Positions 1-795 of a DNA stretch of 938 bases are shown in pieces. The notes under the pieces were generated by a model, which saw only the letters and a list, made by a program, of their open reading frames with translations, was not told the DNA's origin and did no database searches. Every line of letters starts with the position of its first letter. Positions within the stretch are counted from its first letter, which is position 1. This stretch comes from a phage, in the sequence record AB841359.1; one strand, 5' to 3'. A program made the position numbers and the translations under genes.

Positions 1-795
1 TTACGCCAGCTTGGTTCTAGCATCCTGCTGTGCGGCTCTCATTGGTCCAGTCCCAGCGATGACTCCTTCTGAGTAACCCTGCAGTTGATTGCCAAGTTTT
101 GTTTTTGGAGGAACTACATCCGATGTCATAACTGGTACATCTGCCGCAGCGGCACGCTTGAGCAATTGCTGATCTGCGGGTGATATTTCGCCACGAACAG
201 CAGTAATTCCACGCCCTATTCCCTTTGCTGCTGCGGAAAGAACACCCTGAGCGGCAAGGTTGACTCCGGCATTTTTAGCTGCATTTTGTGCGAAATCGCC
301 TTTCTGATTTGCGGCCTCTGCCAGTGATCCAATAGCCATGCTTCCTGCCGTTCCAACTCCTGGAACTAAATACCCGCCAATTGTTTCTCCAGCTTGCGCA
401 TAAGGGTCTGTCGGTCGATCGACAGGGCGATAAACATCATCCAAAACCTTGGGGCCACCAAGCCCCTGGCTGATTGCATTAATCAGACTTGCGCCACCCT
501 GCAATACGTCAAATGGTATGTTTACCAGACCACGACCAGCCTGCTCTGCAATTTGCCCTGCACTTTGACCACCTGTGAGCCAATCGCCAGCTTGTTGCAT
601 CAATGATGGTTCTTCTTTCTGCTGATGAGGCGGAGGGTATGCTGCATAAAACTGATCTCTTGCTTCAGCCCATTTGTCACCAGCCTTAGGGGCAACAACC
701 TCATCAAAATATTGCGCTTGAGCCTGTGCTTTCTGTTCTTCAGTTAACGCCTGATACTGTGGAGAGGCGATAACATCTTTCCATGCTTTAGCCAT
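1..795 (-). CDS. Hypothetical protein, 264 aa, Ala/Gly/Gln-rich and Cys-free, with glycine-zipper-like small-xxx-small segments; function unknown (possibly phage/mobile-element associated)
   Basis: Uninterrupted minus-strand frame from ATG (nt 793-795) to TAA (nt 1-3). Chance of 264 stop-free codons at ~50% GC is roughly (61/64)^264, about 3e-6. SD-like GGGGTG lies 4 nt upstream of the ATG. The ATG overlaps the TAA of the upstream ORF (TAATG), suggesting translational coupling. Hand-counted composition: about 17% Ala, 12% Gly, 10% Gln, 0 Cys, 1 His. The N-terminus is polar with no signal-peptide-like hydrophobic core. No catalytic motif recognised. Confidence 0.8.

Follow-up and report, generated by a model that had tools for sequence, protein, structure and literature searches.

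The 264-codon open reading frame (ORF) that extends from base 795 to base 1 on the minus strand of the 938-base stretch of DNA analyzed here (hereafter the window) is almost certainly gene 16 of a P22-like phage or prophage (Lederbergvirus) from E. coli or a close relative, interrupted, as judged from its sequence, after codon 262 of about 621. The gene is already known: the ORF is a truncated copy of gene 16 of phage P22, which is textbook material and encodes a DNA ejection protein. The four segments of regularly spaced small residues that had drawn attention to the product are present in the protein, and they are no more numerous than its amino acid composition leads one to expect.

ORFs and Composition of the Window

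Two ORFs on the minus strand jointly fill the entire length of the window. The larger one has its ATG at bases 795-793 and its TAA at bases 3-1, and the ORF list here agrees with the original prediction, which had described a 264-aa product over bases 1-795. The description of the composition was also correct, with 46 Ala, 31 Gly and 26 Gln among the 264 residues (39.0%), no Cys and one His, and all fourteen residues that had been named in four small-xxx-small segments are found as given. No mention had been made of the truncation of the gene, nor of the 3′ end of gene 20, which takes up the remaining 143 bases.

The single His results from a change that is private to the window. It is encoded by codon 57 (bases 625-627), where CAG has become CAT (Q57H), and it is absent from the copies in phage phiv205-1 and in the AST20 prophage. 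The GC content of the window is 43-53%. A scan of the window against Rfam was empty, and scans for promoters and terminators returned sites at chance level only.

Identification as a P22 gp16-Type DNA Ejection Protein

The 264-aa ORF matches PHROG 770, “DNA transfer protein,” with an E-value of 2.4e-112, and the related PHROGs that it also matches carry the labels lytic tail fiber protein, transglycosylase and DNA ejection protein. In a BLASTP comparison, residues 64-263 were aligned to residues 53-252 of P22 gp16 with identity at 145 of 200 positions (73%; E = 2e-95). The full-length homologue in phiv205-1, with 621 aa, shares 54% identity with P22 gp16 across 560 aa. The protein had been called unrecognised and without an assignable motif, a statement that is refuted by the matches to PHROG 770 and P22 gp16; BLASTP and PHROGs led to a well-known family at once. 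The accompanying guess of an ejection or membrane-active protein named the right class, since this is a P22 gp16-type ejection protein, but the argument from sequence motifs on which the guess was built does not support it.

The relationship is equally evident at the DNA level. In megablast searches, bases 8-938 were 97-98.2% identical to the Lederbergvirus phages phiv205-1, UPF_BP1 and JEP4, and up to 98.6% identical to segments of 30 complete E. coli chromosomes, where the counterparts are annotated as “DNA transfer protein” or “P22-gp16 family phage DNA ejection protein.” Taken together, the homologues in E. coli phage phiv205-1 (MN340231), Salmonella phage UPF_BP1, Escherichia phage JEP4 and the AST20 prophage of E. 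coli (WP_072727985) span 97-98.6% DNA identity over these bases. The protein is identical to those of the same relatives save for Q57H; their genes are intact with 621 codons, whereas the window diverges from them 7 bases from its edge. A comparison with AST20 over bases 8-938, which covers both ORFs, revealed 13 differences, 11 of which are synonymous. Three changes are private to the window, and two of these are non-synonymous (Q57H and a replacement of Ser by Phe in the gp20 tail). Of 5426 complete E. coli genomes, 1099 carry DNA that resembles some portion of the window. The protein family is of modest size, with 179 cluster representatives at E≤1e-3 among 1.84 billion.

The precomputed Pfam family of the database homologues is PF26808 (Phage_P22_gp16). 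A local Pfam scan of the ORF was empty because the library copy apparently predates PF26808, and not because the family is absent from the ORF. A scan of the ORF against NCBIfam was likewise empty.

The copies of the gene in phiv205-1 and the AST20 prophage are 621 codons long and take their place in the canonical order gp10, gp26, gp14, gp7, gp20, gp16. Compared to the P22 gp16 family as a whole, the copy in the window shows the expected sequence similarity and synteny, but not the full length of about 600 aa. Its likeness to P22 gp16 itself is most pronounced in the Gly/Ala-rich core, which is almost identical, and the gene lies in the same place, directly after gene 20 with an overlap of 1 base; the phage genus, Lederbergvirus, is also shared. 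The differences concern the two ends of the protein: the N-terminus reads MAKAWKDV... here and MKVTANGKTF... in P22, and the copy in the window ends at residue 262 of about 621, with 57% of the protein missing.

The second ORF (bases 938-795, minus strand; ATG at 938-936, TAA at 797-795) consists of the last 47 codons and the stop codon of a gene for a P22 gene-20-type ejection protein. It begins at an internal Met codon of a protein that has 454 aa in phiv205-1, and it equals the C-terminus of that protein except for the change from Ser to Phe at residue 22 (base 874), which is private in comparison with two close homologues. Sixteen of 20 residues are identical to residues 420-439 of P22 gp20, and the ORF matches PHROG 917/2534, “released from the phage upon host infection.” The stop codon of gene 20 and the ATG of gene 16 share one base (TAATG), as do the corresponding codons of P22 genes 20 and 16. 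The order of gp7, gp20 and gp16, including the TAATG overlap, recurs in P22, phiv205-1 and the AST20 prophage; in our case, gp7 lies beyond the window.

Retained Regions and Their Predicted Structure

What is left of gp16 can be divided into three regions. The first is an N-terminal module of residues 1-58 (bases 622..795, minus strand), starting with MAKAWKDV..., which is predicted to form a helical hairpin; AlphaFold2 places helices at residues 5-15 and 19-52 with a pLDDT of about 96. The family is a mosaic in this region, with at least three interchangeable N-termini: MAKAWKDV..., the MKVTANGKTF... of P22, and an SLT lytic transglycosylase domain (P0032 and Sf101 type). Each of them precedes a Gln/Pro-rich linker, which is followed by the conserved Gly/Ala-rich core. 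The MAKAWKDV module is also found alone at the N-terminus of proteins with lengths of 580-1694 aa. Bases 689-938, a mosaic block across the boundary of the two genes that covers the gp20 C-terminus and gp16 residues 1-35, are shared at about 91% identity with the phages Gally, HF4s and vB_EcoP-683R2, in which the remainder of gene 16 differs. The tail of gp20 and the N-terminus of gp16 seem to have been inherited as a unit, which fits the published requirement for a matched gp16 and gp20.

The second region is the Gly/Ala-rich core, residues 64-200 (bases 196..606, minus strand), which is near-identical to residues 53-190 of P22 gp16. Within the core, A107, D119, Y122, P124 and P145 are invariant in the family, and G87, R88, G89, G148 and G156 are conserved in at least 90% of its members. 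The DNA is also strongly conserved here, with bases 370-615 being 95-98% identical in HK620, CUS-3 and epsilon34. The confidence of the AlphaFold2 model is low in the core (pLDDT 37-74). The biochemical role of residues 64-200 is still sparsely described in the literature consulted, and the near-atomic in situ structures announced in a 2026 preprint probably address this core (PMC13622523).

With the third region, residues 201-264 (bases 4..195, minus strand), the helical middle part of gp16 begins; this region was aligned to residues 190-252 of P22 gp16. Helices are predicted at residues 206-217, 233-246 and 250-263 with pLDDT values of 79-93, and the region is broken after residue 262.

For the ORF as a whole, an AlphaFold2 model built with 84 diverse relatives had a mean pLDDT of 69.8 and a pTM of 0.33, and was confident only for residues 1-55 and 200-264; with 48 mostly fragmentary sequences, the mean pLDDT was 50.5. 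No match with an E-value below 1 came out of a Foldseek search of the model against PDB and BFVD, and phmmer and hmmsearch against the PDB sequences gave no meaningful match. Ejection proteins have been described as “conformational gymnasts” in a review (PMC8954989), and the low confidence of the monomer model may be compatible with this description.

The Break in Gene 16

The breakpoint is located between bases 7 and 8 of the window: every megablast match, whether to phages, E. coli genomes or plasmids, begins at base 8. Bases 1..7 (ttacgcc), which complete the Ala264 codon and add the TAA stop, have no counterpart in the homologues. The homologous protein reads ...TKLVNRFTEKYG... where the window reads ...TKLA*, and in a direct comparison the DNA of the homologues proceeds past the breakpoint as ...aagcttgttaatcgcttcacc. 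Across the junction, the DNA is ...AAGCTTGTTAATCGCTTCACC in the homologues (...K L V N R F T E K Y G...) and ...AAGCTGGCGTAA in the window (...K L A stop). Without gaps, the identity of bases 1-7 to the homologues is 2/7, which is the level of unrelated sequence. If a gapped alignment is forced, these seven bases require two substitutions and one indel, compared to 13 differences from the nearest relative in the other 931 bases. All matches stop at base 8 and bases 1-7 are divergent, and the ORF therefore appears to contain the first 262 of about 621 codons plus foreign or erroneous sequence that brings in the stop. In our reading it is an N-terminal fragment that corresponds to about 42-43% of gp16, in which residues 263-264 and the stop include unrelated bases.

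The junction itself is not represented elsewhere. None of about 15 billion catalogued proteins is identical to the product of either ORF, a 30-mer across the junction is absent from the viral contigs and a 25-mer from the metagenome contigs, and an 18-mer searched in genome contigs gave only 13 chance matches in unrelated taxa.

The break could mark a deletion or an insertion, a junction formed by recombination, or a mistake in the assembly. We consider it most likely that the fragment is a pseudogene in a decaying prophage, and less likely that it is an artefact of assembly or sequencing. Both ends of the window fall exactly on ORF boundaries, with the upstream ORF starting at an internal Met of gp20, which hints that the source contains mere fragments of gene 20 and gene 16, as a decayed prophage would. 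An IS element was also considered as the cause of the break and was rejected, as the minus-strand sequence GGCGTAA does not match the IS3-family left end at which the truncated homologues P0002 and P0053 stop; a stretch of seven bases is, moreover, too short for any identification.

Another explanation is that gene 16 is intact in the source and that the stop is an artefact, with the last 7 bases stemming from a chimera, from poor sequence at the end of a contig or from an error of the frameshift type. Such an error would agree with the nearest relatives being intact at 98.6% identity, with the gapped alignment of CTGGCGTAA to CTTG-TTAA that is possible with 2 substitutions and 1 indel, and with the presence of frameshift-fragmented gp16 genes in public assemblies, such as CP051278 with its three consecutive PF26808 ORFs. 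However, 3 changes in 7 bases as opposed to 13 in 931 is far above the local divergence, the ungapped identity (2/7) is that of unrelated sequence, and the position of the window ends on ORF boundaries suggests that both genes were called short and that gene 20 was also interrupted upstream. We regard the artefact as rather unlikely, and favor the hypothesis of a pseudogene in a decaying prophage.

Two truncated homologues in the family (P0002 and P0053) provide a comparison. They break at different codons and then share one and the same terminus, TGAACCGCCCCGG(A/G)AATCCTGGAGACTAAAC...ATGACTAAAAATACTCG, after which the contigs end (L019 3160-3286; L020 6025-6149). We take this terminus to be the left end of an IS3-family element (IS629/IS1203-like), and with such a common terminus in both homologues, IS insertions into gene 16 would be recurrent events.

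Two further arrangements were observed. In the prophage of E. coli Z1323CEC0015 (L016 3752-5884), a gene-20 homologue that is annotated without its N-terminus adjoins IS100 (istA/istB), a further case of decay in the ejection cassette. In CP051278 (L017 5527-7440), gene 16 is represented by three successive ORFs of 276, 215 and 104 aa, all of which belong to PF26808, and this split is probably due to assembly frameshifts.

The Small-xxx-Small Segments

The original prediction placed its emphasis on four segments in which small residues recur at every fourth position, in a pattern resembling that of glycine zippers. Segment 1 (G75/A79/A83/G87; bases 535-573, minus strand) has small residues at all positions in 19 of 21 homologues, and the stretch is gapped in 27 of 48. 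The corresponding numbers are 43 of 48 homologues for segment 2 (S103/A107/G111; bases 463-489, minus strand), 13 of 47 for segment 3 (G148/S152/G156; bases 328-354, minus strand) and 26 of 41 for segment 4 (G184/A188/G192/G196; bases 208-246, minus strand). Of the four, S103-A107-G111 alone shows good conservation across the family.

Gly, Ala and Ser make up one third of the residues in the 264-aa ORF, and we compared the number of i,i+4 chains with that in 5000 composition-preserving shuffles of the same ORF. The protein contains 8 chains of at least three small residues, compared to 6.25±1.85 in the shuffles, of which 24.6% reach 8 (p≈0.25). Likewise, it contains 3 chains of at least four small residues, compared to 2.0±1.2 in the shuffles, with 32.5% reaching 3 (p≈0.33). 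On the Kyte-Doolittle scale, about 1.6 is the customary threshold for a transmembrane segment. The highest mean over 19 residues in the ORF is 1.18 (residues 90-108), and no segment is at transmembrane hydrophobicity. In the AlphaFold2 model, segments 1 and 3 are located in low-confidence helices, segment 4 is at the end of a helix and segment 2 is in coil.

The significance attached to the glycine-zipper-like pattern is not upheld by these results: the chain counts equal the expectation from composition, the segments are not hydrophobic and one of the four is well conserved. The caution that the segments are not classical transmembrane helices was, on the other hand, borne out by the hydrophobicity maximum. 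In the structure prediction and the structure search that had been proposed as checks, segments 1 and 3 are helical at low confidence, segment 2 is in coil, and no Foldseek match below E=1 was obtained. In the literature searched, we found no paper that links gp16 to a glycine zipper. Like the glycine-zipper and GxxxG motifs of membrane proteins, the ORF has (G/A/S)xxx(G/A/S) chains, but here they are situated outside hydrophobic helices, are not enriched over composition and are mostly unconserved. In our reading, the small-xxx-small segments are a consequence of the abundance of Gly and Ala in the conserved core, and the most that might be said for the packing idea is that S103-A107-G111 could form a genuine contact surface once the oligomer is assembled.

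It has to be considered whether the 264-aa product could nevertheless be functional in itself, as a membrane-active or oligomerising protein with glycine-zipper-like helices that come together as a pore or a bundle. The parent protein is membrane-associated and part of a channel (PMC10883804; PMC13622523), S103-A107-G111 has small residues in 43/48 homologues, G87, A107, G148 and G156 are at least 90% conserved, and segments 1 and 3 are held in AlphaFold2 helices. Against this stand the agreement of the chain count with the expectation from composition, the hydrophobicity maximum of 1.18 and the presence of Gln, Lys or Arg inside the segments. Furthermore, segment 3 is kept in just 13/47 homologues and the G75 column of segment 1 is gapped in 27/48, the helices of segments 1 and 3 have a pLDDT of about 50, the coil of segment 2 has a pLDDT below 40, and no identical short protein is on record. 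A functional product of this kind is in our view improbable.

The Function of gp16 and the Fate of the Fragment

The virion of Salmonella phage P22 contains gp7, gp16 and gp20 at about 12, 12 and 30 copies, respectively (PMC4992974). These proteins exit the virion ahead of the DNA and form a trans-envelope conduit, and all three E-proteins are needed for K+ efflux or release and for the entry of DNA, as described in a study that cites Perez et al. (2009) and Wang et al. (2019) (PMC10883804). In the same study, P22 gp16 is reported to associate with membranes in vitro and to promote the uptake of DNA into liposomes, it is placed at the inner membrane, and gp16 and gp20 are stated to function only as a matched pair (PMC10883804). 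Substitutions that allow escape from SieA are listed there at G532 and P546 of P22 gp16, and residues 476-609 are cited as dispensable for membrane association (Perez et al., 2009, via PMC10883804). The preprint mentioned above describes a trans-envelope channel of about 50 nm that is built from gp7*, gp20 and gp16 (PMC13622523).

According to this literature, intact gp16 is expelled through the tail before the DNA and forms the inner-membrane or cytoplasmic end of the conduit. The copy studied here retains the N-terminal helical module and the Gly/Ala-rich core, and is without the C-terminal 57%, including the region of the SieA-escape substitutions (P22 G532, P546). Since this C-terminal 57% is missing, we infer that the fragment is unable to perform the function of gp16, and most likely it cannot support infection.

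Two more specific roles may be imagined. Either an expressed fragment might act as a decoy against the gp20-gp16 conduit of superinfecting P22-like phages, or S103-A107-G111 might be a helix-packing interface of the inner-membrane channel; that one or the other should be correct is very improbable. Finally, the requirement that gp16 and gp20 match in order to function (PMC10883804), and the retention of the N-terminal module, co-inherited with the gp20 C-terminus, could speak for a fragment kept by the prophage as a dominant-negative or exclusion factor that binds incoming gp20 or gp16 and blocks the DNA entry of related phages, but we give this next to no credence, as the PADLOC defence models yielded 0 families at E≤1, the fragment is unique and non-recurrent, the promoter signal is no better than chance, the product would be made in the cytoplasm and without a signal peptide whereas the channel assembles from outside, and the three private changes, two of them non-synonymous, are compatible with relaxed constraint. 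A pseudogene in a decaying prophage is the reading that we retain.

A parallel to gp16 of P22 is found in phage T7, where gp16 (internal virion protein D) is the inner-membrane and cytoplasmic component of the ejectosome, with an analogous role and gene order and the position of third and largest ejection protein (PMC8954989). Members of the P22-gp16 family such as P0032 have an N-terminal lytic transglycosylase domain, as does T7 gp16. However, no sequence relationship between the ORF and T7 gp16 was detectable (hhalign probability 0.26%), the ORF has no Pfam SLT match, and the family length is about 621 aa compared to 1318 aa for the T7 protein.

Implications

Taken for itself, the finding matters little, as it concerns a common fragment of a textbook gene. 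Decay is common around the ejection cassette, and the situation in CP051278 indicates that many “short gp16” entries in the databases are fragments. The small-xxx-small patterns are a second case in point: in a protein of which one third is Gly, Ala and Ser, they are uninformative without a control for composition. More generally, ejection proteins of low complexity that are rich in Gly and Ala appear “unassignable” when they are inspected by eye or with older versions of Pfam, yet they are identified at once by PHROGs or BLAST.
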